A stretch of DNA of 64,000 nt from Amphiscolops sp. MND2022 (Eukaryota): NCBI GenBank assembly GCA_964187785.1, contig OZ076409.1, forward strand, positions 16,494,001 to 16,558,000. The letters are read 5' to 3'. The first letter of the stretch is position 1. Each line of letters starts with the position of its first letter. The position numbers and the translations under genes are program-made. The notes beneath the pieces were generated by a model. The model searched no databases and was not told where the DNA came from. It worked only from the letters and a program-made list of their open reading frames with translations. Shown here piece after piece: positions 2,424 to 64,000 of this stretch.

Positions 2424-2457
2424 AAGGAACAAGCTAGTCTGCACTAACTTAAAAGTT

Positions 2458-8285: not shown

Positions 8286-8970
8286 TTTTTGTCAGAAATG
8301 TGGTTTAACTTCGGTGACAGTTTTGCAAAAGGGGTCAAATTGAAAAGATAGCACAAAACGGACAACGCCATCAGAAAGAGCGTCCAAAAAAACCCCCATG
8401 CTGAAATTTTCGCCGCCATCACTTGAATTTTCATTGAGTTATGTCATTTTTACTATTTTCACAAAATGTGGTTTAACTTCGGTGACAGTTTTGCAAAAGG
8501 GGTCAAAATGAACAGATAGCAAAAAACGGACAACGGCATTGGAAAGAGGGCCCAAAATTACCCCTAAAACGTGTTTTTCACACTCCTGAGTCGACTTTTG
8601 ATAATACATGGAATTTCATTTTTAAGCTTACTAATTTATGCTTTTCAGCATACATTTTCGTAATAGAGTCAAAATTTTGCTTTCTCACAATTTTTCTGGA
8701 ATATTTTTGTTTCATCAGATGTCAATAACTTGAAACGTCGTCTTTTCATGAGAATTTCTCCTCAAAACAAGTTGTTGGCTGGTAATGGTAAGTCCGTACC
8801 GCAGATAGGAGTCTCGCGCTCCAAAAATTGACTCTTTGCTTTTAGCCTAATTGTTGTGAACAGTTGACTTTTGACTTTTGCTTTCCCTGCAAATTTTTGC
8901 TGTTGAAAATTTTGAGAGTTTTTACGAGCTTTGCTCTATTCTAACAGATTATTGGAACGACTTATTGCCA

Positions 8971-10158
8971 ATGGAAAACGACGAGGTTTGTGAGGTTAGT
9001 GGCCCTTCGACTATGGATGACAATGTTTTGAACAACGAACCTTTAAATGATAATACCTCTGCACCTTCATCTAGTTATAGTAAAGTAGCTGGATCTGGTA
9101 TTCCTCCTCCACGTTTGAAAAACATTGTTAAGATGAAAATCTTCCCACCATTTCGGAAAAAACATTTTGAAGACAAGACTGCTTTTGACCTTGCTTCTAA
9201 AGAATGTATTAAAGCCATTCTCTTGGCATTCCCCACGAATCTGAGGCCAAATTTAACAATTGCCACATCATTTACAATGAAAGCAACACGTAAAATGCAT
9301 TCTGTTGACGTTGTTGCATCTGCAGATGCATCATATTACTTCAGTAAAATACAGACAAGTGGCATAGAAATGCTTGGTTGTACGGTCTTTCCGTCTGGAG
9401 AAGATTATTGGCAAGCTTTGCCTGGGTTATATCCTAAGCAGGTCGAAATCAAATTGTTGCATGTGCCTGTTGTGTGTAACGACGCGGAATTGCTTGAATT
9501 GCTACAATTGCCGCCAAACACAGAAACCATTCGTGTGAAACATTTCACTGATGATGTTGATGGAATCCATTTTTATAATGGTAAAGCTACCATTTCGGTC
9601 AAAGCGCAATCCGCAGAGCACGAAGATCAATTGAGACAATGGTCAATCAAAAGCCATGAAGAAAAAGGTTATATTTGGGAAGGAATTCCAATTTATGCGT
9701 TTATTCCTGCCCTACATTCTTGTCCTCATTGTAAGAAAATAAAGAAACCTTTTCATGGTCATGATATTTCATGGTGTCGTTATGCAAAAGAGGCAGCCAA
9801 AACAGAGGAAGCTGTAAAAGTGGCGGCTCTTAACGACGCAGCCGAAAAAAAGGCTGCTGATAAACAACGAAATCACTCAATGAAAAAGAAAGTTACAGAA
9901 GAAAAGCATTTCACGGAAAGTGATGACATCAGTGATTCTGATCAAGAATTGGGCGTCTGTACAGGAAAAAACAGGAAACAAAATGAATCTGATTTGCCAT
10001 GGCAAGAAGTTAAAAGTAAACGGTCTCGACAACAAGAGGCTCGTAAAGAAAGAGAAAGAGAGCGCGTTGCACCCAAAAGGAAGAAATACATATTTAAGTC
10101 TGACAATTTTTTGAAAAATCCTGAAAAAAATTCAAAATCATCTTCACTTAAATCATAA
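8971..10158 (+). CDS. Family A ORF1 (putative nucleic-acid-binding protein, CCHC motif)
   Basis: First in-frame ATG at 8971 (the track start 8878 is TTG); CPHC-x9-HDISWC; basic C-terminus; similar to ORF1 of B and D. Confidence 0.85.
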   Translation: MENDEVCEVSGPSTMDDNVLNNEPLNDNTSAPSSSYSKVAGSGIPPPRLKNIVKMKIFPPFRKKHFEDKTAFDLASKECIKAILLAFPTNLRPNLTIATSFTMKATRKMHSVDVVASADASYYFSKIQTSGIEMLGCTVFPSGEDYWQALPGLYPKQVEIKLLHVPVVCNDAELLELLQLPPNTETIRVKHFTDDVDGIHFYNGKATISVKAQSAEHEDQLRQWSIKSHEEKGYIWEGIPIYAFIPALHSCPHCKKIKKPFHGHDISWCRYAKEAAKTEEAVKVAALNDAAEKKAADKQRNHSMKKKVTEEKHFTESDDISDSDQELGVCTGKNRKQNESDLPWQEVKSKRSRQQEARKERERERVAPKRKKYIFKSDNFLKNPEKNSKSSSLKS

Positions 10159-10169
10159 GCATTAATTTT

Positions 10170-13100
10170 ATGAATTTGTGTTCATTCAATTGTAGGGGAC
10201 TTAAAGATCCAAATCGGCTTAGCAAGGTAATAAGTATATGCCAAAGTTCTGGTGTTCAGTTACAGAACATGGTATTGAATATTCAAGAAACGAAAATTGA
10301 AAGCCTGACAAAAGGTCATCTCAAAATCTTAGAATACTTTGATTTGAACTATGAAATAGTCCCAGCTGTGAATCAAGCAGGTGGACTTATTACTATTTTC
10401 CCAAAGTGTTGGAGTGTCAAAAAAGTCTATAAATCAGCAGGCTTGATGTTTTTGGATTTTCAAAACGTTTTAGGACTTTTTGTGAACGTATACATAAACC
10501 CATTAGATTACTCGCTGGAACATTTCAATGTTGGTTTTTCTAAACTTGATGCAGAAAAATGTGAGAAAATATATCTTTCTGGGGACCTCAATGCTCTTGC
10601 ATCAAGGGAATGCTCCACTAACCCCAACATTATGTCCAATGACATCCGTTTGATTCGTTTTCGCAAAATTGTGATGAAATTGTTTTCAATTCATTTAAAT
10701 CATATACAACCTGCTCCTGGATCTGACATTTTTACTCATTTTGATAAACGCACAGGCTCACTGAATCAAATTGATCATTTTTTCACTACCGATTGCTCGT
10801 ACTTTTTTGATACAAAAAACATTGCTTTCAGTGATCATAGATTGCTGATTTTGAGGAATGTAGACGATAGTTTCTTTTGCCCCAGCTATTGGAAATTCAA
10901 TGACAACGTACTTCAACATCATGTTGTGATTCAAGAGATCATCCGTGCGAGTTGTAACTCTGTTGATGAGCTTGATAGCTATGACACCTCAAAAAATTTA
11001 ATTAGAGACAAACTGAGATCACTCTGTATTCAGTGCGCCCGTGTAGAAAATCATGAAGAAAGTGCAATAATAAAAGAAATTAGACAAATTGAAAACGCAA
11101 TATGTCAGGCAGGTTCCAACGAAGTTTTATTAAGACAGTTGTCTCACTTCAATAGTCAACTTTTAATGATACAAAATTTGAAAGCCAGAAAAGATTTGAG
11201 ACAAATTAAAAATTTTTTCACAGATTTTCATCATGGAGATCCTCATACAGTTAAAAAACATGTGAAACGAAAACGAATGAAATCCCGAATTACTGCAATT
11301 AAAATAAACGAATCAGAAATATCTTATGATGAGGAGAAAATTCACCAGGAGTTTGTTCATCATTTCACAGAACGTTTTTCAAAGCCTCGTCTGACACATG
11401 AACAATTTGTTCAAAGTTCTCTTTTGAAAAATCAAGCTCTTAGTGACTTCTGCTCTAAAAACACTCAAAATATTCAAGATATTAGAAATTTATGTTCAAC
11501 AAGACAGGAAATTATGGAACAAGAAGTTAAACAGGCCATTAGAAAATTGAATTCAGAAAGCGCTCCAGGCTTGGATGGTCTGACTTCAAATTTTTATAAA
11601 GCCCATGCCGATTTTTTTGTCCCTTACCTAACTAAAGTGTTCAATCTTGTGCAGAATCAACAAAGGGTTCCTGAGTCCTTTAGGAATGCCGTAGTGAAAT
11701 TTATTCCAAAAAAAGAAACATCAGATTCAGTTGAAGATTATCGTCCAATTAGCTTGATAAATACAGATCAAAAAATTCTCTCTCATGTTCTGACTGCTCG
11801 TTTGATTGATCCGCTGTCAAAAATTATAGGTGTCCATCAAAGTGCTCATCTACCCAATCGTAACATTCATTCATCACTCATGAAAATAAATCTCAATCTG
11901 GAAACACTTGAAGATTCTGACTGCTTAGTTGCAGTAGACTTTAGCAAAGCGTTTGACAGGATTGATCGACGTTTTCTTTTTTTATTGCTCCAAGCAATAG
12001 GAATAGACGATATTACTTTGAAGTTAATCAAGGCTATGTATGAAAAAACAATAGCTTTTCTAGACATAAATGGATATCTTTCAACACCAGTGCAAATGGA
12101 AAACGGAGTCAGGCAAGGTTGTCCAATGTCAGCCCTTTTGTTTGATCTAGGTGTAGAACCTGTTTTACAATGTATTCGAGACTCTAATACTATTCTTTCA
12201 AACTCAATTTTCAAGGTAATTGCCTATGCGGATGATTTAACATGCTGCATTAAAAAGGAATCTTTTGATCAACTGATGGACACTTTGAATTGGTTTTCTC
12301 AAATAACTAATCTCGTTCTTAATCATGCTAAAACTGAGATTCTCTGTCCTTCACAGTTTGACAATGGGATCACAACTAAAGAGACTGCAAAAATTTTGGG
12401 TGTCACTTTCGAAGTGGGAAATCCTAAGATTGATATGTCTTCAATGACTTCCTATGCTGAAAAATCTCGCTTCTTCTGCAACAAATTCAATACGTTTGTT
12501 GCTCGTGCGAAAAATATTGACACTTTTGTAATGCAAAAACTTATTCATCAAGTTAGGCACAAAACTGCACTCAAACGACAGTTAGAAACTTTGGACAACA
12601 TCTTTGTTGATTCAATTTGGTTGGGACGAAAGCACAACCTGAAAAAATCGGTGCTTCAAAAATCTTGGTCAGCAATGGGAATAGCGCTGAAAAACTTCAC
12701 CAAAACTATTACATCGTCAAAAATAATTGACTTGAAAAATTTTTTAGGAGAAGATTTGACTGGGTCATTTTTTGAAATGTATCGTAAAACTTCGCATTAC
12801 AAAAATCTAATTAATCTAGTAAGGACTTTCAATTGCACGCTTCATATTAATCAAGGGAATCAGATCCACTTACTTAAAGGAGAAGAGATTAAAGATTTGA
12901 CTTTGTCAATGCGCACGAAAGAAATCTACAAGTTTCTTTCGGACTCAGATAATTCGGACGCTCTTCAGCGGATAACGAAAATTTCTTCGAAAATTTGCTA
13001 TCCCCCCGAACACATTTATACCTTCATTCGCCAACTTTGGAAACACCCAAGTTATGCTGCGTTTGAGAAGAACTATTTATATCAATTCCTAATGAATTGT

Positions 13101-13403
13101 TATCTAGATAAACCCAAAAAATGTGAACTTGGATGGGTTTTTGATTGTTTCTGTTGCTTTTGTGGATCAGCTGAGGAATCCCATAGTCATCTTTTGTTTG
13201 AATGTACAAATGTGCCTAACTTGAATTTTTTTCAAGTGACACAATCAATAAACTTGAGTTTTTTAGACCCAGGGGACATATATCCATTTAAAAGACTGAT
13301 TGCTCTGCTTTTGTCGTCTTGGAGTGGAGATAGCTCCAAGTTCCAGAAATATTTCCTTGATTGCATAAATCTCAGGAACCCTTCCCACTTCAATTCTCTG
13401 TAA
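10170..13403 (+). CDS. Family A ORF2: APE endonuclease + reverse transcriptase + C-terminal CCHC
   Basis: FNCRGL, IQETK, GDLN, SDH; APGLDG, RPISLINTDQKI, DFSKAFD, GVRQGCP, YADD; CCFC-x8-H-x4-C. Confidence 0.97.
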   Translation: MNLCSFNCRGLKDPNRLSKVISICQSSGVQLQNMVLNIQETKIESLTKGHLKILEYFDLNYEIVPAVNQAGGLITIFPKCWSVKKVYKSAGLMFLDFQNVLGLFVNVYINPLDYSLEHFNVGFSKLDAEKCEKIYLSGDLNALASRECSTNPNIMSNDIRLIRFRKIVMKLFSIHLNHIQPAPGSDIFTHFDKRTGSLNQIDHFFTTDCSYFFDTKNIAFSDHRLLILRNVDDSFFCPSYWKFNDNVLQHHVVIQEIIRASCNSVDELDSYDTSKNLIRDKLRSLCIQCARVENHEESAIIKEIRQIENAICQAGSNEVLLRQLSHFNSQLLMIQNLKARKDLRQIKNFFTDFHHGDPHTVKKHVKRKRMKSRITAIKINESEISYDEEKIHQEFVHHFTERFSKPRLTHEQFVQSSLLKNQALSDFCSKNTQNIQDIRNLCSTRQEIMEQEVKQAIRKLNSESAPGLDGLTSNFYKAHADFFVPYLTKVFNLVQNQQRVPESFRNAVVKFIPKKETSDSVEDYRPISLINTDQKILSHVLTARLIDPLSKIIGVHQSAHLPNRNIHSSLMKINLNLETLEDSDCLVAVDFSKAFDRIDRRFLFLLLQAIGIDDITLKLIKAMYEKTIAFLDINGYLSTPVQMENGVRQGCPMSALLFDLGVEPVLQCIRDSNTILSNSIFKVIAYADDLTCCIKKESFDQLMDTLNWFSQITNLVLNHAKTEILCPSQFDNGITTKETAKILGVTFEVGNPKIDMSSMTSYAEKSRFFCNKFNTFVARAKNIDTFVMQKLIHQVRHKTALKRQLETLDNIFVDSIWLGRKHNLKKSVLQKSWSAMGIALKNFTKTITSSKIIDLKNFLGEDLTGSFFEMYRKTSHYKNLINLVRTFNCTLHINQGNQIHLLKGEEIKDLTLSMRTKEIYKFLSDSDNSDALQRITKISSKICYPPEHIYTFIRQLWKHPSYAAFEKNYLYQFLMNCYLDKPKKCELGWVFDCFCCFCGSAEESHSHLLFECTNVPNLNFFQVTQSINLSFLDPGDIYPFKRLIALLLSSWSGDSSKFQKYFLDCINLRNPSHFNSL

Positions 13404-13563
13404 CGAAACGTCTTTGATGATATGTTGAATATCATGGTAATACCACTGAAATTCTGTACGATTTAACATTAAACATGAAACATTGTATTGGCTGATGGTT
13501 GTAATGATTGTTCTTATTGAAAGTTGATTGATGAAAAATTGACTCGTAAATATAGTCTTTGAA

Positions 13564-13672
13564 AGCCTAATTGTTGTGATAAACTTATTAAATAGGTAAG
13601 TATTCCAACCCTATTGATAAGTTTTATTTGAAAGCAGACTGCGAAAGTGGTCTGCTGCCCAATTTTTTGAAC
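13564..13672 (+). ncRNA. Complete SL RNA sequence regenerated by the TSD downstream of element A (native upstream region displaced)
   Basis: Full SL sequence begins directly after the element 3' end. Confidence 0.75.
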
Positions 13673-13791
13673 AAGGAACAAGCTAGTCTGCACTAACTTA
13701 AAAGTTACGCGTATTTTGACCGAGAAAATTTTCGTATCATTGTACGTAATTTTGTTGTTAAGCATATAAAGCTATTGATTTTACAATGATC

Positions 13792-13910
13792 GGCTACGAC
13801 CATACCATGTTGAATGCACCGGTTCTCGTCCGATCACCGAAGTTAAACAACATAGGGCCTGGTTAGTACTTGGATGGGAGACCGCTTGGGAACACCAGGT
13901 GTTGTAGCCT
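13792..13910 (+). rRNA. 5S rRNA
   Basis: Copy of 625-743. Confidence 0.98.
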
Positions 13911-14468
13911 TTTTTGTCAGAAATGTGGTTTAACTTCGGTGACAGTTTTGCAAAAGGGGTCAAATTGAAAAGATAGCAAAAAACGGACAACGCCATTAGA
14001 AAGAGCGTCCAAAAAAACCCCCATGCTGAAATTTTCGCCGCCATCACTTGAATTTTCATTGAGTTATGTCATTTTTACTATTTTCACAAAATGTGGTTTA
14101 ACTTCGGTGACAGTTTTGCAAAAGGGGTCAAAATGAACAGATAGCAAAAAACGGACAACGGCATTGGAAAGAGGGCCCAAAATTACCCCTAAAACGTGTT
14201 TTTCACACTCCTGAGTCGACTTTTGATAATACATGGAATTTCATTTTTAAGCTTACTAATTTATGCTTTTCAGCATACATTTTCGTAATAGAGTCAAAAT
14301 TTTGCTTTCTCACAATTTTTCTGGAATATTTTTGTTTCATCAGATGTCAATAACTTGAAACGTCGTCTTTTCATGAGAATTTCTCCTCAAAACAAGTTGT
14401 TGGCTGGTAATGGTAAGTCCGTACCGCAGATAGGAGTCTCGCGCTCCAAAAATTGACTCTTTGCTTTT

Positions 14469-14577
14469 AGCCTAATTGTTGTGATAAACTTATTAAATAG
14501 GTAAGTATTCCAACCCTATTGATAAGTTTTATTTGAAAGCAGACTGCGAAAGTGGTCTGCTGCCCAATTTTTCGAAC
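14469..14577 (+). ncRNA. Putative SL RNA gene (Sm variant AATTTTTCGA)
   Basis: Copy of 398-505. Confidence 0.8.
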
Positions 14578-14696
14578 AAGGAACAAGCTAGTCTGCACTA
14601 ACTTAAAAGTTACGCGTATTTTGACCGAGAAAATTTTCGTATCATTGTACGTAATTTTGTTGTTAAGCATATAAAGCTATTGATTTTACAATGATC

Positions 14697-14815
14697 GGCT
14701 ACGACCATACCATGTTGAATGCACCGGTTCTCGTCCGATCACCGAAGTTAAACAACATAGGGCCTGGTTAGTACTTGGATGGGAGACCGCTTGGGAACAC
14801 CAGGTGTTGTAGCCT
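14697..14815 (+). rRNA. 5S rRNA
   Basis: Copy of 625-743. Confidence 0.98.
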
Positions 14816-15373
14816 TTTTTGTCAGAAATGTGGTTTAACTTCGGTGACAGTTTTGCAAAAGGGGTCAAAATGAACAGATAGCAAAAAACGGTCAACGGCA
14901 TTGGAAAGAGCGTCCAAAAAAACCCCCATGCTGAAATTTTCGCCGCCATCACTTGAATTTTCATTGAGTTATGTCATTTTTACTATTTTCACAAAATGTG
15001 GTTTAACTTCGGTGACAGTTTTGCAAAAGGGGTCAAAATGAACAGATAGCAAAAAACGGACAACGGCATTGGAAAGAGGGCCCAAAATTACCCCTAAAAC
15101 GTGTTTTTCACACTCCTGAGTCGACTTTTGATAATACATGGAATTTCATTTTTAAGCTTACTAATTTATGCTTTTCAGCATACATTTTCGTAATAGAGTC
15201 AAAATTTTGCTTTCTCACAATTTTTCTGGAATATTTTTGTTTCATCAGATGTCAATAACTTGAAACGTCGTCTTTTCATGAGAATTTCTCCTCAAAACAA
15301 GTTGTTGGCTGGTAATGGTAAGTCCGTACCGCAGATAGGAGTCTCGCGCTCCAAAAATTGACTCTTTGCTTTT

Positions 15374-15482
15374 AGCCTAATTGTTGTGATAAACTTATTA
15401 AATAGGTAAGTATTCCAACCCTATTGATAAGTTTTATTTGAAAGCAGACTGCGAAAGTGGTCTGCTGCCCAATTTTTCGAAC
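15374..15482 (+). ncRNA. Putative SL RNA gene (Sm variant)
   Basis: Copy of 398-505. Confidence 0.8.
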
Positions 15483-15601
15483 AAGGAACAAGCTAGTCTG
15501 CACTAACTTAAAAGTTACGCGTATTTTGACCGAGAAAATTTTCGTATCATTGTACGTAATTTTGTTGTTAAGCATATAAAGCTATTGATTTTACAATGAT
15601 C

Positions 15602-15720
15602 GGCTACGACCATACCATGTTGAATGCACCGGTTCTCGTCCGATCACCGAAGTTAAACAACATAGGGCCTGGTTAGTACTTGGATGGGAGACCGCTTGGG
15701 AACACCAGGTGTTGTAGCCT
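15602..15720 (+). rRNA. 5S rRNA
   Basis: Copy of 625-743. Confidence 0.98.
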
Positions 15721-16278
15721 TTTTTGTCAGAAATGTGGTTTAACTTCGGTGACAGTTTTGCAAAAGGGGTCAAAATGAACAGATAGCAAAAAACGGTCAA
15801 CGGCATTGGAAAGAGCGTCCAAAAAAACCCCCATGCTGAAATTTTCGCCGCCATCACTTGAATTTTCATTGAGTTATGTCATTTTTACTATTTTCACAAA
15901 ATGTGGTTTAACTTCGGTGACAGTTTTGCAAAAGGGGTCAAAATGAACAGATAGCAAAAAACGGACAACGGCATTGGAAAGAGGGCCCAAAATTACCCCT
16001 AAAACGTGTTTTTCACACTCCTGAGTCGACTTTTGATAATACATGGAATTTCATTTTTAAGCTTACTAATTTATGCTTTTCAGCATACATTTTCGTAATA
16101 GAGTCAAAATTTTGCTTTCTCACAATTTTTCTGGAATATTTTTGTTTCATCAGATGTCAATAACTTGAAACGTCGTCTTTTCATGAGAATTTCTCCTCAA
16201 AACAAGTTGTTGGCTGGTAATGGTAAGTCCGTACCGCAGATAGGAGTCTCGCGCTCCAAAAATTGACTCTTTGCTTTT

Positions 16279-16387
16279 AGCCTAATTGTTGTGATAAACT
16301 TATTAAATAGGTAAGTATTCCAACCCTATTGATAAGTTTTATTTGAAAGCAGACTGCGAAAGTGGTCTGCTGCCCAATTTTTCGAAC
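16279..16387 (+). ncRNA. Putative SL RNA gene (Sm variant)
   Basis: Copy of 398-505. Confidence 0.8.
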
Positions 16388-16506
16388 AAGGAACAAGCTA
16401 GTCTGCACTAACTTAAAAGTTACGCGTATTTTGACCGAGAAAATTTTCGTATCATTGTACGTAATTTTGTTGTTAAGCATATAAAGCTATTGATTTTACA
16501 ATGATC

Positions 16507-16625
16507 GGCTACGACCATACCATGTTGAATGCACCGGTTCTCGTCCGATCACCGAAGTTAAACAACATAGGGCCTGGTTAGTACTTGGATGGGAGACCGC
16601 TTGGGAACACCAGGTGTTGTAGCCT
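16507..16625 (+). rRNA. 5S rRNA
   Basis: Copy of 625-743. Confidence 0.98.
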
Positions 16626-17183
16626 TTTTTGTCAGAAATGTGGTTTAACTTCGGTGACAGTTTTGCAAAAGGGGTCAAATTGAAAAGATAGCAAAAAACG
16701 GACAACGCCATTAGAAAGAGCGTCCAAAAAAACCCCCATGCTGAAATTTTCGCCGCCATCACTTGAATTTTCATTGAGTTATGTCATTTTTACTATTTTC
16801 ACAAAATGTGGTTTAACTTCGGTGACAGTTTTGCAAAAGGGGTCAAAATGAACAGATAGCAAAAAACGGACAACGGCATTGGAAAGAGGGCCCAAAATTA
16901 CCCCTAAAACGTGTTTTTCACACTCCTGAGTCGACTTTTGATAATACATGGAATTTCATTTTTAAGCTTACTAATTTATGCTTTTCAGCATACATTTTCG
17001 TAATAGAGTCAAAATTTTGCTTTCTCACAATTTTTCTGGAATATTTTTGTTTCATCAGATGTCAATAACTTGAAACGTCGTCTTTTCATGAGAATTTCTC
17101 CTCAAAACAAGTTGTTGGCTGGTAATGGTAAGTCCGTACCGCAGATAGGAGTCTCGCGCTCCAAAAATTGACTCTTTGCTTTT

Positions 17184-17292
17184 AGCCTAATTGTTGTGAT
17201 AAACTTATTAAATAGGTAAGTATTCCAACCCTATTGATAAGTTTTATTTGAAAGCAGACTGCGAAAGTGGTCTGCTGCCCAATTTTTTGAAC
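17184..17292 (+). ncRNA. Putative SL RNA gene
   Basis: Copy of 398-505. Confidence 0.85.
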
Positions 17293-17411
17293 AAGGAACA
17301 AGCTAGTCTGCACTAACTTAAAAGTTACGCGTATTTTGACCGAGAAAATTTTCGTATCATTGTACGTAATTTTGTTGTTAAGCATATAAAGCTATTGATT
17401 TTACAATGATC

Positions 17412-17530
17412 GGCTACGACCATACCATGTTGAATGCACCGGTTCTCGTCCGATCACCGAAGTTAAACAACATAGGGCCTGGTTAGTACTTGGATGGGAG
17501 ACCGCTTGGGAACACCGGGTGTTGTAGCCT
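17412..17530 (+). rRNA. 5S rRNA (A>G at 17517)
   Basis: Copy of 625-743. Confidence 0.97.
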
Positions 17531-18088
17531 TTTTTGTCAGAAATGTGGTTTAACTTCGGTGACAGTTTTGCAAAAGGGGTCAAATTGAAAAGATAGCAAA
17601 AAACGGACAACGCCATTAGAAAGAGCGTCCAAAAAAACCCCCATGCTGAAATTTTCGCCGCCATCACTTGAATTTTCATTGAGTTATGTCATTTTTACTA
17701 TTTTCACAAAATGTGGTTTAACTTCGGTGACAGTTTTGCAAAAGGAGTCAAAATGAACAGATAGCAAAAAACGGACAACGGCATTGGAAAGAGGGCCCAA
17801 AATTACCCCTAAAACGTGTTTTTCACACTCCTGAGTCGACTTTTGATAATACATGGAATTTCATTTTTAAGCTTACTAATTTATGCTTTTCAGCATACAT
17901 TTTCGTAATAGAGTCAAAATTTTGCTTTCTCACAATTTTTCTGGAATATTTTTGTTTCATCAGATGTCAATAACTTGAAACGTCGTCTTTTCATGAGAAT
18001 TTCTCCTCAAAACAAGTTGTTGGCTGGTAATGGTAAGTCCGTACCGCAGATAGGAGTCTCGCGCTCCAAAAATTGACTCTTTGCTTTT

Positions 18089-54189: not shown

Positions 54190-54308
54190 AAGGAACAAGC
54201 TAGTCTGCACTAACTTAAAAGTTACGCGTATTTTGACCGAGAAAATTTTCGTATCATTGTACGTAATTTTGTTGTTAAGCATATAAAGCTATTGATTTTA
54301 CAATGATC

Positions 54309-54427
54309 GGCTTCGACCATACCATGTTGAATGCACCGGTTCTCGTCCGATCACCGAAGTTAAACAACATAGGGCCTGGTTAGTACTTGGATGGGAGACC
54401 GCTTGGGAACACCAGGTGTTGTAGCCT
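54309..54427 (+). rRNA. 5S rRNA (A>T at 54313)
   Basis: Copy of 625-743. Confidence 0.97.
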
Positions 54428-55216
54428 TTTTTGTCAGAAATGTGGTTTAACTTCGGTGACAGTTTTGCAAAAGGGGTCAAATTGAAAAGATAGCAAAAAA
54501 CGGACAACGCCATTAGAAAGAGCGTCCAAAAAAACCCCCATGCTGAAATTTTCGCCGCCATCACTTGAATTTTCATTGAGTTATGTCATTTTTACTATTT
54601 TCACAAAATGTGGTTTAACTTCGGTGACAGTTTTGCAAAAGGGGTCAAAATGAACAGATAGCAAAAAACGGACAACGGCATTGGAAAGAGGGCCCAAAAT
54701 TACCCCTAAAACGTGTTTTTCACACTCCTGAGTCGACTTTTGATAATACATGGAATTTCATTTTTAAGCTTACTAATTTATGCTTTTCAGCATACATTTT
54801 CGTAATAGAGTCAAAATTTTGCTTTCTCACAATTTTTCTGGAATATTTTTGTTTCATCAGATGTCAATAACTTGAAACGTCGTCTTTTCATGAGAATTTC
54901 TCCTCAAAACAAGTTGTTGGCTGGTAATGGTAAGTCCGTACCGCAGATAGGAGTCTCGCGCTCCAAAAATTGACTCTTTGCTTTTAGCCTAATTGTTGTT
55001 CACGCGTCGGTTGGTTAGTTATCTTTGACTTTTGACTTCTGATTGTGAAAAACTTTTTTGACGAGTTTTTAACACATAGTACCGCTAAAACTATAGAAGT
55101 TTAACGAAAAAATTGTTTATTTGGGTTTATACCCCTTTGCACTTTACCCCCTCTGGGTTTATACCCCCCCCTTGGGTTTATACTCCCTTTTGGATAGAGG
55201 ATAGGAAAACGACTTC

Positions 55217-56548
55217 ATGATTCTTGACGACGATGTTGCTTCTGGTAATGTGGACGTAACAAAAATGCCGATGGATGGTCACGACAATACTGAATATATT
55301 CCACCTATTGAAAGCCTCAGCCTTGTTCAATTGTCGGAGCAATCGCAATCTGGGTCTCCGTCACTTACACCACCACCAACATCTTCTCTACAGAACATAC
55401 AATCGGCAATAAACACGCAATTATACAGCGCTGTTGCAGGTGCCAACACTCCACCATCTCGCACGACAGCAATAATTAAAATGAAAATCATTCCACCATT
55501 ACAAAAACAACACTTCACAACCAAGGACAACTTCACTACTGCAACCAATCAATGTTTTTCAGCAATTTTACGTTGCTTTCCACCTACATACAGACAACAG
55601 CTTACTATTTCAAAATCATTTACAATTGTTGGGACCAGACATTTGCATTCAATTAATGTAGTGGCGCCTGTCACAGCCCAGGACATTGTATCAAAATTGC
55701 AAACAACAGGAATATCAATGCTTGGCAAAACTGTATTTCCATCGACAGACAACTTTCTCACTAATTTACCTGGACTCTATCCACGATACACTCAAGTGAG
55801 ACTTCTACATGCACCAGCACAATGCGATGACGAGACCTTAACAGAACTATTACATCTTCCGGCAGATACGACAATCATAGGATTCAAACGTCAGACAGAC
55901 ACGATTGATGGTATGTCCTTTTTCAATGGCAAAATAGCATGCACGATAAAAATCAACAATACAACTCATGAAGAAGAACTACGACAATGGTCGTTGGATC
56001 AACATGAAAATTCCACAATGATTTGGGAGGAGATTCCTATCTTTGCTTTTATTCCCTCACTTCACAATTGCACTTTCTGTAAACAACATAACAAACCTCA
56101 CTTTGGACATGACATTGCCTGGTGCAAACATGCAAAAGCACATCCAACGACTCCACCATCACCTCCTCTACCACAACAGACATCAACTACAACTTCGCAG
56201 ATGCCTCTGCCTCCTCCTTCTTCTTCTGCTACTCCATCTGTTATCGCGCCAACTCCTCCTACTTTGGTTAACAACAACTTGGGTTTAGCTGACGTACCTG
56301 TTACAACGACTGATGATTGGCAACCTGTAACTAAGAAGACTTTCCCTAAACACAGTTTGGTTAGAACGAGGTCTGTTATCAAGGCGAAAAGACCAAAACA
56401 CCCGAGCCCTGTAACTGAAGTTAACCCCAATTTGACAGAACCTACGATGACGGCACCGTTCCTTCCGACTACACCCATTTACAATTCATTTGACAGCAAG
56501 CGGTATTCTAAATCTTCCAGGTCTAAACATGATAGTGTTCAGCCTTAA
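55217..56548 (+). CDS. Family D ORF1
   Basis: 443 aa; KMKIIPP, LGKTVFP, LPGLYP and CTFC-x9-HDIAWC; P/T/S-rich tail. Confidence 0.88.
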   Translation: MILDDDVASGNVDVTKMPMDGHDNTEYIPPIESLSLVQLSEQSQSGSPSLTPPPTSSLQNIQSAINTQLYSAVAGANTPPSRTTAIIKMKIIPPLQKQHFTTKDNFTTATNQCFSAILRCFPPTYRQQLTISKSFTIVGTRHLHSINVVAPVTAQDIVSKLQTTGISMLGKTVFPSTDNFLTNLPGLYPRYTQVRLLHAPAQCDDETLTELLHLPADTTIIGFKRQTDTIDGMSFFNGKIACTIKINNTTHEEELRQWSLDQHENSTMIWEEIPIFAFIPSLHNCTFCKQHNKPHFGHDIAWCKHAKAHPTTPPSPPLPQQTSTTTSQMPLPPPSSSATPSVIAPTPPTLVNNNLGLADVPVTTTDDWQPVTKKTFPKHSLVRTRSVIKAKRPKHPSPVTEVNPNLTEPTMTAPFLPTTPIYNSFDSKRYSKSSRSKHDSVQP

Positions 56549-59500
56549 TTGTAGAGGACTGAAGGATCCTCTTCGCCTTGCCATGACTCTGACTGCTTGT
56601 CAGCGTCATGGTGTGAAAAATTTTGTTCTTTTCCTACAAGAAACTAAGATTTCTGAATTTTCTATCAATCATAGAAAACTACTTACACAACACCATCTCT
56701 CGTACTGCATGGTTCCTGCCTCTGATACTGCAGGTGGATTGGTGACAATTTTTCCGTCTTCTTTCCACATAACTTACCGTTTTAACAATGAATCCATGCT
56801 CCTATTGCGTTTTCAAGAATATAATATCACTTTTAGCAACTGTTATGTCAATCCGCTTGATTTTCATCTGGAAAAGCTTAATCATGGTTTCCAACAGCTT
56901 TCTCTTCTATCTTCTAGTTCTCACATACTTGGTGGAGATTTTAACTGTTTATCAACCCGTGCTGACACATCTAATGTTAATATTCGAAGTAATGATTTCC
57001 GCTTACTTCGTTTTCGAAAACTTATGAATCTTATGCACCTGCTGGATGTCACACCATGTGCTCCAGCCTCGGTTGCACATCTGTTCACACACTATGATAA
57101 AAGGTATAATACATTTAGTCGTTTAGACTACTTTTTTACATCGAGTGTTGACTTCTCTCTCGAAACTGAAGTCATTCCTTTTTCGGATCACAAGTTAATT
57201 AAGCTTTGTGAAGCGGCATCTTTTACTCCAGCAAACAGTCATTGGAAATTAAATGACAACATTCTGCAGTATCACCATGCAGTGCGGGAGGTTTTGGTGA
57301 GTTCTATTGCATCCCGGTCTACGGATTCAGAGTGTATCCTATCGAACTATGATGTCATTAAAAATCTTGTTAGGGATAAACTCCGTATCTTTTGTATCCA
57401 GAATCATAGACGTAATCTTTTTGAAGAAAATCACCTGAAAGAACTAATACTTGATGCAGAGAAATATCTACAAATTTTTGGCGTAGATTCCAAAACTATT
57501 TCTCGTCTTTCAGATTTAAATAAAAAATTGATGGCACTCCAGCACCAGAATGCTCGTAAATGCCTTAAACAGGTGAAAATGTTTTATGTTGATGCCAATC
57601 ATGGTGATCCTCAAGTTATTAAAAAACACCTTTCAAATATGAGAAAATCCGTACATATTTCTCAAATACAAGACGACAATGGTGAGGTCTTGACTACTGA
57701 TGAGCAGATTTTTGAAGCTTTTCATATGCATTACTCAGATCGTTTTTCCATTCCGCAGGTCAATATCAATAATGATTCCCATGTCAAGCAGCTGCAAGAT
57801 GACATTATTGGTACTTTTTGTAGTGTTAAGAGATCTGATATTGAAAATATTCGCACTCTAACCAGAGACCGGGATATGATTAGTGAACAAGAAGTTATTA
57901 ATGCCATTAACAAATTGAATTCTGAAAGTGCTCCTGGTCCTGATGGCCTCACTTCCAACTTTTATAAAGCTCATCAGGAGGTTCTGAGTCCTCTACTCTG
58001 CAGGCTGTTTAACCAGATGGTTACTGATGGTTGGATGCCGCTATCTTTCTCCAGAGCCATTATAAAACTGATTCCTAAAAAACCCAACGCCAATCGTGTT
58101 GAAGATTTTCGTCCCATCAGTCTTATTAATACAGACCAAAAAATACTCTCTCATATTTTGTCGGAACGAGTTCGCATTCCTGTTGATAAGCTTATTGGTC
58201 CCCACCAATCTGCTTATCTTCCTGGGCGTCACATACACTCTTCTTTATTGAAAGTCTCCTTAAACTTGGAAACCATGCCGTCAAATAATTCTCTCATCGC
58301 TATTGATTTTAGCAAAGCCTTTGATAAACTAAGTCGAACATTTATCTTTGCGTTATTAGAAAAAATTGGCTTGCACGAAAACACAGTCAAATTGATTCGC
58401 ATCATGTATATGCATAATATTGCCTATCTTGACATCAATGGTCAACTCTCTCAACCTGTTCTTATGGAAAATGGAGTTAGGCAAGGCTGCCCTTTATCCG
58501 CGCTCATTTTTATTCTAGGCATTGAACCCCTTCTTCATGCAATTCAGCACTCCTTCAACATTAGATCGGATATGCCGTTTAAAATTATCTCGTATGCGGA
58601 TGATCTTACTTGTGGTATTCACACTGATAATATTCAAGATCTTTTTGATATCATTGATACATTTTCTGGCGTTACGAATTTATCTGTTAATCAATCTAAA
58701 ACTGAAATTCTTACATTGAGTAGTCTTCGTCCTCCTCTCCAATCTTGTGACGTTGTTAAAATACTGGGTGTTCACTTTAGTTTGGGCAACTCTGCTAGAC
58801 CTTTCTCTGACTTCATGAACTATGCGCAACGAAGTGGTCAGTATTGTAACAAATACAATACTCTAATAGCTCGTGCGCGAAATATTCATACCTTTGTTAT
58901 GCAAAAATTAGTTCATGAAATTCGCCATCTTTATGTCCTAAGGCCTCAATTAGACAAAATTGATAGTATTTTCATTGATGCTATTTGGCTTGGCCGCAAA
59001 CACAATCTAAGTAAATTTATTCTCCAGAGACCATGGTCGGCGATGGGTATTGGTCTTCGGAATTTCCGTCAAACTATTGTTTCTTCCAAAATTATCGACT
59101 GCTTCAACTTTCTCTACGAAAACAGTTTGCCCGATAATCTTAAACTGTTACTCCAATCTAGGTTTTTTAGAAATCTTAAATCCTTGTGTCGCACATTTAA
59201 ATGCTCCATTTCCTTTCCAAACTCCACCACCTGTACTCTTTCTATTGATGACCGTCAACTTGTGATTTCCACCCCTCTTCCCACTAAAAAAATTTATCAT
59301 TTTCTTACAGACCGGTCAACTTCGGCAGCTTTTTGCCGAATCTCTAGTATGGCAGAGAAATTATCTGTTCCTGCTTTTTCTATCTTTTCCTTCATCCGTC
59401 ACTTGTGGAAGCATCCCTCGTATGCTGCTTTTGAGAAAAATTATTTATATCTGTTTTTCCTTAATTGCTACTTAGAGAAAACCAAAAAACAAGATTTGGG

Positions 59501-59780
59501 CTTAGTGTTTTCAGCTCATTGCTGTTTTTGTGGTGTTGAAGACGAAACCTTCTCACATCTTATTACTGAATGTCAGCATATTCCATCTCTCAATTTCTTT
59601 AAAACTCCTAGTGATTGCTGTCTAGATTTTCAAAACATGAATGCAATTTACCCTTTCAAACGTCTGATAGCTCTCCTAATTTCCTCATGGAGCGAAGATC
59701 CGCTCAGATTCTCTAAGTATTTTTTGAATTGTGTCTCCTTAAGGCATCCAACCATTCTTAACCATCAGGCTGTAACGTAA
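56529..59780 (+). CDS. Family D ORF2: APE endonuclease + RT + CCHC
   Basis: ATG 56529 (MIVFSLNCRGL; the track start is TTG); LQETK, GDFN, SRLDY, SDH; APGPDG, DFSKAFD, GVRQGCP, YADD; CCFC-x8-H-x4-C. Confidence 0.96.
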   Translation: MIVFSLNCRGLKDPLRLAMTLTACQRHGVKNFVLFLQETKISEFSINHRKLLTQHHLSYCMVPASDTAGGLVTIFPSSFHITYRFNNESMLLLRFQEYNITFSNCYVNPLDFHLEKLNHGFQQLSLLSSSSHILGGDFNCLSTRADTSNVNIRSNDFRLLRFRKLMNLMHLLDVTPCAPASVAHLFTHYDKRYNTFSRLDYFFTSSVDFSLETEVIPFSDHKLIKLCEAASFTPANSHWKLNDNILQYHHAVREVLVSSIASRSTDSECILSNYDVIKNLVRDKLRIFCIQNHRRNLFEENHLKELILDAEKYLQIFGVDSKTISRLSDLNKKLMALQHQNARKCLKQVKMFYVDANHGDPQVIKKHLSNMRKSVHISQIQDDNGEVLTTDEQIFEAFHMHYSDRFSIPQVNINNDSHVKQLQDDIIGTFCSVKRSDIENIRTLTRDRDMISEQEVINAINKLNSESAPGPDGLTSNFYKAHQEVLSPLLCRLFNQMVTDGWMPLSFSRAIIKLIPKKPNANRVEDFRPISLINTDQKILSHILSERVRIPVDKLIGPHQSAYLPGRHIHSSLLKVSLNLETMPSNNSLIAIDFSKAFDKLSRTFIFALLEKIGLHENTVKLIRIMYMHNIAYLDINGQLSQPVLMENGVRQGCPLSALIFILGIEPLLHAIQHSFNIRSDMPFKIISYADDLTCGIHTDNIQDLFDIIDTFSGVTNLSVNQSKTEILTLSSLRPPLQSCDVVKILGVHFSLGNSARPFSDFMNYAQRSGQYCNKYNTLIARARNIHTFVMQKLVHEIRHLYVLRPQLDKIDSIFIDAIWLGRKHNLSKFILQRPWSAMGIGLRNFRQTIVSSKIIDCFNFLYENSLPDNLKLLLQSRFFRNLKSLCRTFKCSISFPNSTTCTLSIDDRQLVISTPLPTKKIYHFLTDRSTSAAFCRISSMAEKLSVPAFSIFSFIRHLWKHPSYAAFEKNYLYLFFLNCYLEKTKKQDLGLVFSAHCCFCGVEDETFSHLITECQHIPSLNFFKTPSDCCLDFQNMNAIYPFKRLIALLISSWSEDPLRFSKYFLNCVSLRHPTILNHQAVT

Positions 59781-59932
59781 CTAAGTTCAATTTTATTTAT
59801 ATCTTGCAACCAATGAACCATTCACTTACTTTGATTAGCTACTGAATTGTCTGAATTATGAACTTGGTCATGACCTACGCTATTTGATTGATTCATTTGT
59901 TCCTACTGATTTACTGTAATTAATTCTTTAAA

Positions 59933-60041
59933 AGCCTAATTGTTGTGATAAACTTATTAAATAGGTAAGTATTCCAACCCTATTGATAAGTTTTATTTGA
60001 AAGCAGACTGCGAAAGTGGTCTGCTGCCCAATTTTTTGAAC
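59933..60041 (+). ncRNA. Complete SL RNA sequence regenerated downstream of element D
   Basis: Full SL sequence after the element 3' end. Confidence 0.75.
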
Positions 60042-60160
60042 AAGGAACAAGCTAGTCTGCACTAACTTAAAAGTTACGCGTATTTTGACCGAGAAAATTT
60101 TCGTATCATTGTACGTAATTTTGTTGTTAAGCATATAAAGCTATTGATTTTACAATGATC

Positions 60161-60279
60161 GGCTACGACCATACCATGTTGAATGCACCGGTTCTCGTCC
60201 GATCACCGAAGTTAAACAACATAGGGCCTGGTTAGTACTTGGATGGGAGACCGCTTGGGAACACCAGGTGTTGTAGCCT
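60161..60279 (+). rRNA. 5S rRNA
   Basis: Copy of 625-743. Confidence 0.98.
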
Positions 60280-60837
60280 TTTTTGTCAGAAATGTGGTTT
60301 AACTTCGGTGACAGTTTTGCAAAAGGGGTCAAATTGAAAAGATAGCAAAAAACGGACAACGCCATTAGAAAGAGCGTCCAAAAAAACCCCCATGCTGAAA
60401 TTTTCGCCGCCATCACTTGAATTTTCATTGAGTTATGTCATTTTTACTATTTTCACAAAATGTGGTTTAACTTCGGTGACAGTTTTGCAAAAGGGGTCAA
60501 AATGAACAGATAGCAAAAAACGGACAACGGCATTGGAAAGAGGGCCCAAAATTACCCCTAAAACGTGTTTTTCACACTCCTGAGTCGACTTTTGATAATA
60601 CATGGAATTTCATTTTTAAGCTTACTAATTTATGCTTTTCAGCATACATTTTCGTAATAGAGTCAAAATTTTGCTTTCTCACAATTTTTCTGGAATATTT
60701 TTGTTTCATCAGATGTCAATAACTTGAAACGTCGTCTTTTCATGAGAATTTCTCCTCAAAACAAGTTGTTGGCTGGTAATGGTAAGTCCGTACCGCAGAT
60801 AGGAGTCTCGCGCTCCAAAAATTGACTCTTTGCTTTT

Positions 60838-60946
60838 AGCCTAATTGTTGTGATAAACTTATTAAATAGGTAAGTATTCCAACCCTATTGATAAGTTTTA
60901 TTTGAAAGCAGACTGCGAAAGTGGTCTGCTGCCCAATTTTTTGAAC
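60838..60946 (+). ncRNA. Putative SL RNA gene
   Basis: Copy of 398-505. Confidence 0.85.
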
Positions 60947-61065
60947 AAGGAACAAGCTAGTCTGCACTAACTTAAAAGTTACGCGTATTTTGACCGAGAA
61001 AATTTTCGTATCATTGTACGTAATTTTGTTGTTAAGCATATAAAGCTATTGATTTTACAATGATC

Positions 61066-61184
61066 GGCTACGACCATACCATGTTGAATGCACCGGTTCT
61101 CGTCCGATCACCGAAGTTAAACAACATAGGGCCTGGTTAGTACTTGGATGGGAGACCGCTTGGGAACACCAGGTGTTGTAGCCT
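61066..61184 (+). rRNA. 5S rRNA
   Basis: Copy of 625-743. Confidence 0.98.
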
Positions 61185-61742
61185 TTTTTGTCAGAAATGT
61201 GGTTTAACTTCGGTGACAGTTTTGCAAAAGGGGTCAAATTGAAAAGATAGCAAAAAACGGACAACGCCATTAGAAAGAGCGTCCAAAAAAACCCCCATGC
61301 TGAAATTTTCGCCGCCATCACTTGAATTTTCATTGAGTTATGTCATTTTTACTATTTTCACAAAATGTGGTTTAACTTCGGTGACAGTTTTGCAAAAGGG
61401 GTCAAAATGAACAGATAGCAAAAAACGGACAACGGCATTGGAAAGAGGGCCCAAAATTACCCCTAAAACGTGTTTTTCACACTCCTGAGTCGACTTTTGA
61501 TAATACATGGAATTTCATTTTTAAGCTTACTAATTTATGCTTTTCAGCATACATTTTCGTAATAGAGTCAAAATTTTGCTTTCTCACAATTTTTCTGGAA
61601 TATTTTTGTTTCATCAGATGTCAATAACTTGAAACGTCGTCTTTTCATGAGAATTTCTCCTCAAAACAAGTTGTTGGCTGGTAATGGTAAGTCCGTACCG
61701 CAGATAGGAGTCTCGCGCTCCAAAAATTGACTCTTTGCTTTT

Positions 61743-61851
61743 AGCCTAATTGTTGTGATAAACTTATTAAATAGGTAAGTATTCCAACCCTATTGATAAG
61801 TTTTATTTGAAAGCAGACTGCGAAAGTGGTCTGCTGCCCAATTTTTTGAAC
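61743..61851 (+). ncRNA. Putative SL RNA gene
   Basis: Copy of 398-505. Confidence 0.85.
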
Positions 61852-61970
61852 AAGGAACAAGCTAGTCTGCACTAACTTAAAAGTTACGCGTATTTTGACC
61901 GAGAAAATTTTCGTATCATTGTACGTAATTTTGTTGTTAAGCATATAAAGCTATTGATTTTACAATGATC

Positions 61971-62089
61971 GGCTACGACCATACCATGTTGAATGCACCG
62001 GTTCTCGTCCGATCACCGAAGTTAAACAACATAGGGCCTGGTTAGTACTTGGATGGGAGACCGCTTGGGAACACCAGGTGTTGTAGCCT
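61971..62089 (+). rRNA. 5S rRNA
   Basis: Copy of 625-743. Confidence 0.98.
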
Positions 62090-62647
62090 TTTTTGTCAGA
62101 AATGTGGTTTAACTTCGGTGACAGTTTTGCAAAAGGGGTCAAATTGAAAAGATAGCAAAAAACGGACAACGCCATTAGAAAGAGCGTCCAAAAAAACCCC
62201 CATGCTGAAATTTTCGCCGCCATCACTTGAATTTTCATTGAGTTATGTCATTTTTACTATTTTCACAAAATGTGGTTTAACTTCGGTGACAGTTTTGCAA
62301 AAGGGGTCAAAATGAACAGATAGCAAAAAACGGACAACGGCATTGGAAAGAGGGCCCAAAATTACCCCTAAAACGTGTTTTTCACACTCCTGAGTCGACT
62401 TTTGATAATACATGGAATTTCATTTTTAAGCTTACTAATTTATGCTTTTCAGCATACATTTTCGTAATAGAGTCAAAATTTTGCTTTCTCACAATTTTTC
62501 TGGAATATTTTTGTTTCATCAGATGTCAATAACTTGAAACGTCGTCTTTTCATGAGAATTTCTCCTCAAAACAAGTTGTTGGCTGGTAATGGTAAGTCCG
62601 TACCGCAGATAGGAGTCTCGCGCTCCAAAAATTGACTCTTTGCTTTT

Positions 62648-62756
62648 AGCCTAATTGTTGTGATAAACTTATTAAATAGGTAAGTATTCCAACCCTATTG
62701 ATAAGTTTTATTTGAAAGCAGACTGCGAAAGTGGTCTGCTGCCCAATTTTTTGAAC
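62648..62756 (+). ncRNA. Putative SL RNA gene
   Basis: Copy of 398-505. Confidence 0.85.
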
Positions 62757-62875
62757 AAGGAACAAGCTAGTCTGCACTAACTTAAAAGTTACGCGTATTT
62801 TGACCGAGAAAATTTTCGTATCATTGTACGTAATTTTGTTGTTAAGCATATAAAGCTATTGATTTTACAATGATC

Positions 62876-62994
62876 GGCTACGACCATACCATGTTGAATG
62901 CACCGGTTCTCGTCCGATCACCGAAGTTAAACAACATAGGGCCTGGTTAGTACTTGGATGGGAGACCGCTTGGGAACACCAGGTGTTGTAGCCT
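62876..62994 (+). rRNA. 5S rRNA
   Basis: Copy of 625-743. Confidence 0.98.
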
Positions 62995-63550
62995 TTTTTG
63001 TCAGAAATGTGGTTTAACTTCGGTGACAGTTTTGCAAAAGGGGTCAAATTGAAAAGATAGCAAAAAACGGACAACGCCATTAGAAAGAGCGTCCAAAAAA
63101 ACCCCCATGCTGAAATTTTCGCCGCCATCACTTGAATTTTCATTGAGTTATGTCATTTTTACTATTTTCACAAAATGTGGTTTAACTTCGGTGACAGTTT
63201 TGCAAAAGGGGTCAAAATGAACAGATAGCAAAAAACGGACAACGGCATTGGAAAGAGGGCCCAAAATTACCCCTAAAACGTGTTTTTCACACTCCTGAGT
63301 CGACTTTTGATAATACATGGAATTTCATTTTTAAGCTTACTAATTTATGCTTTTCAGCATACATTTTCGTAAGAGTCAAAATTTTGCTTTCTCACAATTT
63401 TTCTGGAATATTTTTGTTTCATCAGATGTCAATAACTTGAAACGTCGTCTTTTCATGAGAATTTCTCCTCAAAACAAGTTGTTGGCTGGTAATGGTAAGT
63501 CCGTACCGCAGATAGGAGTCTCGCGCTCCAAAAATTGACTCTTTGCTTTT

Positions 63551-63594
63551 AGCCTAATTGTTGTGATAAACTTATTAAATAGGTAAGTATTCCA
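63551..63594 (+). pseudogene. SL exon + donor of an SL gene interrupted by element C3
   Basis: SL sequence to ...GTAAGTATTCCA, then family C ORF1 sequence. Confidence 0.75.
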
Positions 63595-64000
63595 GGTATG
63601 GCCGGTGCGAGACGACCGAACCTACAGATTCTACCCGTGCAATGTCAGCATCAAGATTCAAAATGCCCTGCCCAATCTGACTAACGAAGAAATCAAGAAC
63701 GAACTGAAACTACCCGAAGGCATTACTGCGAACGACGACTTGAACTTCAAAACAGTCAGCATTGGGCCGTACATGAAAGTCTTTGATGGAACAGCGACAA
63801 TCTCTGCCACTGTTCAATCTGCCGAGCAAATGGAAGAAATGAAAAACTGGTCGCGCAAATCTTTCTTTGAAGAAAAACAAGTTAGAAATCAAGTGACTCA
63901 GATGTATGCTCCTAACATCATGACATGTACTTTCTGTGAAAAGAAAGGCTCCTTCTACAGAGGTCATGATGACACTTGGTGCACAAAGAAAACGAAAGAA
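63595..64000 (+). mobile_element. Family C copy 3, 5'-truncated within ORF1, SL site 2; runs off the window
   Basis: Starts GGTATGGCCGGTGCG (= C1 ~35976); carries the C2-type CTGACTAAC variant. Confidence 0.93.

Follow-up and report, generated by a model that had tools for sequence, protein, structure and literature searches.

The tandem arrays of 5S ribosomal RNA (rRNA) and spliced leader (SL) RNA genes of the acoel Amphiscolops sp. MND2022 are, with a probability of roughly 85%, the niche of a guild of site-specific retrotransposons without long terminal repeats (non-LTR) of the L1 group, which would nick the SL gene with an apurinic/apyrimidinic endonuclease (APE), copy themselves there by target-primed reverse transcription and be transcribed from the SL promoter. 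The window, meaning the whole stretch of 64,000 nucleotides that was analysed, lies at C1:16494001-16558000, that is, on contig C1 of an assembly of 1.07 Gb. The window is occupied over its full length (1..64000, + strand) by such an array, with a unit of about 905 bp, 42 5S genes and 43 SL genes, of which 10 SL genes are interrupted by insertions.

According to Rfam, the 42 5S rRNA genes of the window are spaced by about 905 bp and every one of them is on the + strand. An exact-string scan displayed 43 SL upstream anchors, of which 32 precede the exact 62-nt SL reference without interruption, 10 belong to interrupted genes and 1 belongs to a variant (49428). This variant gene (49428-49489) is uninterrupted and carries a T-to-C change at exon nt 22; it is possibly an SL variant or a decaying copy. 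As seen in an intact SL RNA gene (7940..8050, + strand), the exon comprises nt 1-32, ends in ...AAATAG and is followed by the donor GTAAGT. A U-rich Sm-like site is found 3' of a strong hairpin, and the fold of the 111-nt SL gene region is much stronger than those of shuffled sequences (z = -3.99). A stretch of 22 nt of the SL exon recurs in the SL published for another acoel, Symsagittifera roscoffensis, where passages of the genome report describe it as part of the trans-spliced leader and give 30.2% of genes as trans-spliced (PMC9911081). Taken together, the 5S genes, the match to a published acoel SL and the fold identify the window as an acoel 5S-SL tandem array. The unit of 905 bp was not seen by Tandem Repeats Finder, which was run with a period limit of 500 bp.

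Insertions occupy 10 of the 43 SL genes in the window (about 23%), and all 10 are in the orientation of the SL gene. Only two 3' junctions can be observed among them: TTTT^AGCC at SL nt 1 (site 1), and AAAT^AGGT (site 2), which is 30 bp 3' of site 1 and 2 nt before the splice donor. String scans of the window agree with the sequence-only reading on the number of occupied loci, the single orientation and the two junctions. The distance between the sites, which that reading had given as 31 bp, is corrected here to 30 bp, and site 2, which it had placed at the splice donor, is actually 2 nt upstream of the exon/intron boundary. The crude chance that 10 insertions should fall at two positions and in one orientation of a 905-bp unit is about 3e-30. 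Random insertion, with survival only in the redundant SL array, is extremely unlikely as an explanation. Multicopy genes do tolerate insertions, and the share of occupied SL genes would fit such tolerance, but none of the 10 insertions is found in the spacer, which makes up roughly 800 bp of each unit, and the junctions are exact to the nucleotide. Also, five related families of the same genome (L, M, N, O and P) are found at five different sites outside arrays, indicating that dispersed insertion is tolerated in this genome.

Six of the 10 insertions are long interspersed nuclear elements (LINEs) of four families, A to D, and the other four are copies of a short non-autonomous element; all are on the + strand. 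The four families had been called strongly divergent, and the identity of 24-46% between their second open reading frames (ORF2) confirms it. Family A (8860..13563; 4704 bp) is inserted at SL nt 1 with a target site duplication (TSD) of 16 bp, and both its ORF1 (8971-10158) and its ORF2 (10170-13403) are intact. Family B (21855..26951; 5097 bp) is also at SL nt 1 with a TSD of 16 bp. Its ORF1 is at 22119-23540; ORF2 is broken in the window (23533-25605 and 26176-26859), and copies of B with an open ORF2 exist elsewhere in the genome. Family D (55000..59932; 4933 bp) is at SL nt 1 with a TSD of 14 bp and intact frames (ORF1 55217-56548, ORF2 56529-59780). Three copies of family C are inserted at AAAT^AGGT. 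The first, copy C1 (35267..40122), has intact ORF1 (35671-36867) and ORF2 (36864-40031), and its TSD can be read as 8 bp exact or as 18 bp with one mismatch. The element proper begins with AAGTCC at 35277, and since other copies begin at AAGTCC, the TSD of 18 bp is the better reading. Copy C2 (43755..48566) lacks about 45 nt of its 5' end; its TSD is 12 bp long and its ORF2 is split (45309-47501 and 47543-48475). Copy C3 (63595..64000) runs off the window; it is short by about 700 nt at its 5' end, with the 5' junction at SL nt 44 and a TSD of 14 bp, and its open ORF2 is found just past the window end. It can be seen that the intact frames noticed earlier in A, C1 and D hold, with ORF2 of B and C2 broken, and that 5' junctions vary between copies, as had also been claimed.

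Genome-wide counts are lower bounds, with 42-46 of about 5,700-6,500 first-look candidates scored per search. Family C is represented by at least 39 stretches at 95-100% identity, among which at least 2 pairs are pieces of one copy. These stretches are located on contigs C1 (16.47-16.62 Mb), C12 (56.14-56.61 Mb) and C13 (13.11-13.29 Mb), plus small contigs. In all 30 fetched loci the tail of C is joined to AGGTAAGTATTCC. Family D is represented by at least 22 stretches at 98-100% identity in the same three array regions, and 4 of its 5 fetched 3' ends are joined to AGCC. The high identity and the open state of most stretches show recent activity of C and D. Further families, E, F (with a decayed form, I), G, H and J, exist in the array regions, and all 10 of their fetched 3' ends join AGCCTAATTG (AGCC). 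For family J, the 5' junction is more than 2 kb upstream of ORF2. Family A is a single copy with intact ORFs among 43 scored stretches, and the protein closest to it, P0009, comes from the database and is absent from the hit lists of this genome. The guild thus comprises at least nine LINE families and one dedicated short element, and is larger than first noticed. The flank check on fetched copies supports the expectation that most copies are located in SL genes, and the LINEs are SL-gene-specific genome-wide. Two copies were found off target. One is a 5'-truncated copy of family J on contig C8 (C8:15822547-15823147, L046), with a 3' flank that starts AGCCAATATG; the other is a copy of family G on contig C4 (C4:57924330-57924609, L089), 99% identical to an array copy, with a 3' flank that starts AGCCTCCTAC. 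Both flanks start with AGCC, indicating that the first four target nucleotides are kept even outside SL genes.

The clustering of copies that are 98-100% identical in three array regions, the known homogenisation of tandem arrays and the identical 5' junction of eight C copies would all be compatible with the origin of most copies by unequal crossing-over or segmental duplication of a few occupied units. As a main source of the copies, this is very unlikely. Nine families at 24-67% identity share one or two nucleotide positions, and in the window alone family C has three different 5' ends and the short element at least 3 types of junction. The copies are distributed over three large contigs, between which the array units vary in both length and sequence. 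Additionally, family D has two types of 5' junction, and many copies are independently 5'-truncated.

All four families of the window encode a separate ORF1 of 395-473 aa upstream of ORF2. ORF1 is homologous across A to D (20-36% identity to A), with a conserved CxxC...H...C motif, a CCHC-like knuckle, and matches no Pfam family even at E <= 5. At Pfam thresholds, ORF2 of B, C and D contains Exo_endo_phos, RVT_1 and a weak zf-RVT, the candidate Cys-rich tail, and ORF2 of family A contains RVT_1 only; the RVT_1 matches range from E = 1e-23 to 1e-38. An alignment of the N-terminal 265 residues of ORF2 from 14 families of the genome reveals that the APE catalytic residues N, E, Y, D, N, T/H and D and the SDH motif are invariant in all 14 domains, including that of family A. 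The profile of this alignment finds the human L1 endonuclease (L1-EN) first in the PDB (E = 1.5e-13), ahead of cellular AP endonucleases, and a single-sequence search with the APE domain of C gives one weak match to a plant APE (E = 0.016). With the full-length ORF2 of C as query, human L1 ORF2p is found at 1e-59, compared with 1e-30 or weaker for R2 proteins, the closeness of the reverse transcriptase (RT) to L1 being judged against PDB entries only. After the RT, Pfam detects nothing except the zf-RVT region, and no restriction-like endonuclease (RLE) domain. The nearest named database relatives are generic RT proteins of fish, frogs, lizards and lancelet, with about 24-28% identity in the rows covering most of the query. 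These elements are two-ORF APE-type LINEs of the L1 group and not of the restriction-like type, as had been claimed from the sequence; the L1-group label is drawn from matches to solved structures.

SL genes are known as targets of other non-LTR elements, namely CRE1/CRE2, SLACS and CZAR in trypanosomatids and NeSL-1 in nematodes. Membership of the present elements in these restriction-like SL-specific lineages would be suggested by the same class of target gene, and like them they are non-LTR elements in the SL exon of tandem SL genes. The domain analysis refutes it and leaves it hardly any probability: CRE/SLACS/CZAR and NeSL-1 are members of early-branching clades with a restriction-like endonuclease at the C-terminus, whereas the elements here have two ORFs, an N-terminal APE with all catalytic residues, no detected RLE domain, and a far better match to L1 ORF2p than to R2, and they group with L1. 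The same niche reached with a different nuclease would be convergence.

Relatives of these elements in the same genome have other targets. Family K, on contigs C4 and C5, has a 3' flank that is U2 small nuclear RNA (snRNA) from nt 19 (Rfam U2, 135 bits in L049), with loci at C5:28058495-28059095 (L049), C4:81109583-81110183 (L047) and C4:81100378-81100978 (L048). The two K copies on contig C4 are separated by 9.2 kb, in which U2 is present as short fragments only. Family S (C3:17106427-17107027, L055; two copies 4.8 kb apart) has a 3' flank that is U1 snRNA from nt 8 (Rfam U1, 86 bits). Both K and S are near the 5' end of the U2 or U1 gene and in gene orientation. PMC4640811 places the beginning of the Utopia U2 flanks at nt 39 and describes the 3' flank of Keno as identical; family K, resuming at U2 nt 19, is thus not at the Keno site. 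The tails of families L, M, N, O and P are poly(A) runs of 8-18 nt, and the flanks that follow are five different non-array sequences. After P (C12:6624229-6624829, L054) and M (C1685:13042-13642, L051), a sequence resembling a tRNA T-arm can be observed; these flanks gave no Rfam match at E <= 0.01, and a tRNA or tRNA-derived short interspersed element (tRNA-SINE) as target is a suspicion only. Family R (C11:39248300-39252240; L087, L090) is 27-31% identical to the others with an open frame of 1048 aa, and no 3' end or target was recognisable within 700 bp of 3' flank.

The ORF2 identity is 46% between A and D and 40-67% among B, E, F, G, H and J. It falls to 34-38% between K and the SL families, and to only 24-29% between C and any other family. 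Two trees were computed, a quick tree with 37 rows and a careful tree with 22 rows. In both, all families of the genome form one clade with 100% support, with the vertebrate sequences outside. Family C, together with a database relative of 44% identity, branches outside a core clade of K and all site-1 families. The careful tree unites the poly(A) families with B, E, F, G, H and J (support 99/98), and A, D and K fall outside this group. When monophyly of the site-1 families is forced, the cost is 24 log-likelihood units, with p = 0.006 in the approximately unbiased (AU) test of a group that was defined after the tree had been seen. It had been proposed that one lineage diversified and split its target into two sites. 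This part of the sequence-only reading is not supported in that form, as C is outside the core clade, the AU test rejects monophyly of site 1, and families with U2 and U1 targets are inside the clade. By these trees, SL targeting is not the property of one lineage that split its site, and the site-1 families are paraphyletic to non-specific poly(A) relatives, which separate them into two groups. SL targeting would either be ancestral to the core clade and then lost or switched, or have arisen more than once, and family C is placed as a separate old lineage. The presence of U2, U1 and non-specific poly(A) relatives in one clade implies that target choice has switched several times. Additionally, the proteins P0122, P0009 and P0252, which are absent from the hit lists of this genome, hint at the presence of both lineages in other records too.

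To the observed structure, domains, junctions, specificity and within-genome phylogeny, the proposed mechanism adds by inference the part of the protein that sets specificity, the use of the promoter and the pairing of the short element with family C. The element APE would nick the bottom strand opposite T^AGCC (families A, B, D, E, F, G, H and J) or T^AGGT (family C). The free 3' OH would then prime reverse transcription at a short tail without poly(A), ...TTTRAA, and a second nick on the top strand, 11-18 bp downstream, would produce the TSDs. The elements would have no promoter of their own and would be transcribed from the SL promoter. Element RNA would start with SL nt 1-11/16 at site 1 or with nt 1-29 at site 2, and in full-length C copies the SL leader on this RNA may guide precise joining of the 5' end. 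Transcription from a host promoter is proposed on the ground that every copy is in gene orientation and within the first 31 nt of an snRNA-type gene (SL, U1 or U2). In 8 of 12 fetched spans of family C, SL nt 1-29 is directly joined to AAGTCC without a TSD; the 5'-truncated C2 and C3 do have TSDs, of 12 and 14 bp. The copy L059 displays SL 1-47, then SL 5-29, then AAGTCC, and this structure indicates that the template RNA carried an SL leader. The junctions in the sequence thus suggest transcription from the SL promoter and leader-guided joining. According to a part of PMC4494074, R1- and R2-type elements integrate more strongly at their specific target when they are co-transcribed with it.

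Several observations weigh against this interpretation. With respect to the domains, the zf-RVT matches of B, C and D (E = 2e-4 to 4e-4, 21-22.5 bits) are below the curated 27.5 bits, and none is found in A; the APE of family A is missed by Pfam and by the single-sequence PDB search and is seen by alignment only. With respect to specificity, one of the five fetched D copies (L032) has a different 3' region and no SL junction within the fetched span. The use of the SL promoter and leader is read from junctions in DNA, and the leader is direct only in L059 (clean) and L058 (complex). Two of the 12 C spans (L057 and L060) contain no junction, and L058, as said, is complex. The identical SL 1-29 junction in eight copies could come in part from copying of whole units in the arrays. 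For the short element, the link to C consists of the common site and 12 of 13 terminal nucleotides, and the 3' tails of C and of the short elements fold no better than shuffles.

A rival explanation places the precision elsewhere. The endonuclease would be only loosely specific (^AGCC or ^AGG), and precision would mainly come from pairing of read-through or leader SL sequence, as RNA or cDNA, with the target; alternatively, ORF1p or a part of ORF2p other than the APE would provide it by binding DNA. The element tails without poly(A), the homology-guided appearance of the 5' junctions of full-length C copies, the match of off-target copies to SL over only 4-5 nt, and the co-transcription effect in R1- and R2-type elements (in part of PMC4494074) are in its favour. 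We nevertheless regard it as rather unlikely. The off-target copies still start with AGCC where there is no SL homology, which points to sequence choice at the nick itself, and nine families with unrelated 3' untranslated regions are found at one or two nucleotide positions. Site choice by the APE, combined with SL promoter use, is the preferred proposal here.

The short element of 96-113 bp exists in two subfamilies, and all four copies in the window are at AAAT^AGGT on the + strand. Subfamily 2 is found at 1346..1441 (96 bp, TSD 14 bp). Subfamily 1 is found at 19946..20058 and 30619..30731 (each 113 bp, TSD 17 bp) and at 50388..50490 (103 bp, TSD 11 bp), the last with about 6-10 nt missing at its 5' end. 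Genome-wide, 40 of 46 candidate matches were scored; one of them is on contig C2, and the other 39 belong to small contigs or to the three array regions. The flanks of six copies, including that on contig C2, are all SL genes. The SL gene on contig C2 (C2:4986640-4986900, L073) is far from the three arrays; it contains a full-length short element at the usual site and has diverged sequence 3' of the insertion. As 31 of the 40 scored matches begin at element nt 1-7, the 5' end is a defined one. No Rfam family besides 5S was detected in the window at gathering thresholds, and the short element accordingly shows no tRNA, 7SL or 5S head of the type transcribed by RNA polymerase III (Pol III). The possibility that short elements are random 5'-truncated ends of LINEs was ruled out, since most copies have a common 5' end and the search revealed no LINE with that tail. 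Compared with family C, 12 of the last 13 nt match and the insertion site is the same, and among the matches listed no other LINE has the tail of the short element. Family C is thus the likely driver of the short element, which would have been moved by the machinery of C; going by these sequence features, the pairing is likely.

A broader hypothesis can be formulated, although we hold it only tentatively and would put the odds somewhat against it. One acoel-specific clade would form a guild of parasites of snRNA-type promoters, with sense insertion within the first 31 nt of SL, U1 or U2 and repeated switches of target. The RNA of family C would be born with 29-30 of the 32 leader nucleotides, presumably with the cap, and would mimic trans-spliced mRNA for export and translation. 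If this were true, a set of related APE domains that read four different single-nucleotide targets would offer a natural key to the way an APE reads DNA sequence.

Apart from the insertions, an internal direct duplication of about 130-170 bp is present in each array spacer (for example 7385-7680), starting just 3' of the 5S gene. A longer unit variant on contig C12, in which the 5S genes are 1074 bp apart, has a third copy of this spacer duplication.

The arrays can be compared with rDNA, in which R1 and R2, several unrelated LINE families, are found at fixed sites in 28S genes, occupy a sizeable fraction of units, depend on transcription of the host gene and have non-autonomous derivatives. 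Unlike R1 and R2, which exist in rDNA transcribed by RNA polymerase I (Pol I), the present elements occupy an snRNA-type gene transcribed by RNA polymerase II (Pol II), and at least nine families of a single L1-like clade share one or two positions. Among other site-specific LINEs, Dewa has tRNA as its target. Co-transcription of R2 is cited in a passage of PMC4494074. Spliced-leader exons are listed among non-LTR targets, and NeSL is given as SL-specific and RLE-encoding, in passages of PMC4640811, PMC4494074 and PMC8869645. The same passages name U2, U5, 5S, satellites, microsatellites and transposons as targets of the Tx1 clade, with Keno (U2), Mutsu (5S), Kibi/Koshi (microsatellites), and Tx1 and Tx1-Mar (DNA transposons) as examples (PMC4494074, PMC4640811). 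Like the Tx1-clade LINEs described there, the present elements combine APE and RT, belong to the L1 group and insert precisely, in fixed orientation, into multicopy small-RNA genes. Some Tx1-clade systems, as far as these passages describe them, mobilise short partners with the same target preference, and some carry snRNA-derived 5' heads. The difference is in the target, the SL RNA gene, which is absent from the Tx1 target lists in the cited passages (PMC4494074, PMC4640811), and also in the U2 site, which for family K is nt 19 in comparison to nt 39 for Keno in the relevant part of PMC4640811. The short element resembles SINEU, which together with Tx1-Mar of crocodilians is described in part of PMC4494074: in both cases a short element has the same preferred target as a site-specific LINE, lacks an evident internal promoter and is probably transcribed from the flanking target. 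Unlike SINEU, the short element here has no snRNA-derived head (Rfam found 5S only in the window), is 96-113 bp long and is confined to one SL position. The sequence-only reading knew of no prior description, and the literature searched, a collection that omits most subscription journals and Repbase Reports, yielded neither an APE-type SL-specific LINE nor an account of LINEs in the SL genes of acoels, so that an earlier catalogue entry is possible.

The elements described here are target-specific LINEs of the L1/Tx1 type with a new target and an unusually rich guild. SL genes are the textbook niche of retrotransposons with a restriction-like endonuclease, and a clade of APE/L1 type in the same place is a clear case of convergence. 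Beside R1 and R2 in rDNA, the arrays provide a new system for the coexistence and competition of genomic parasites. The families at SL nt 1, SL nt 31, U2 nt 19 and U1 nt 8, together with the non-specific families, form a comparison series for target choice in APE-type LINEs, a question that bears on the use of site-specific retrotransposons for targeted DNA insertion. For the animal itself, the disruption of about one quarter of the SL genes in the window bears on the supply of SL RNA, where about 30% of genes are reported as trans-spliced in the passage cited above (PMC9911081).

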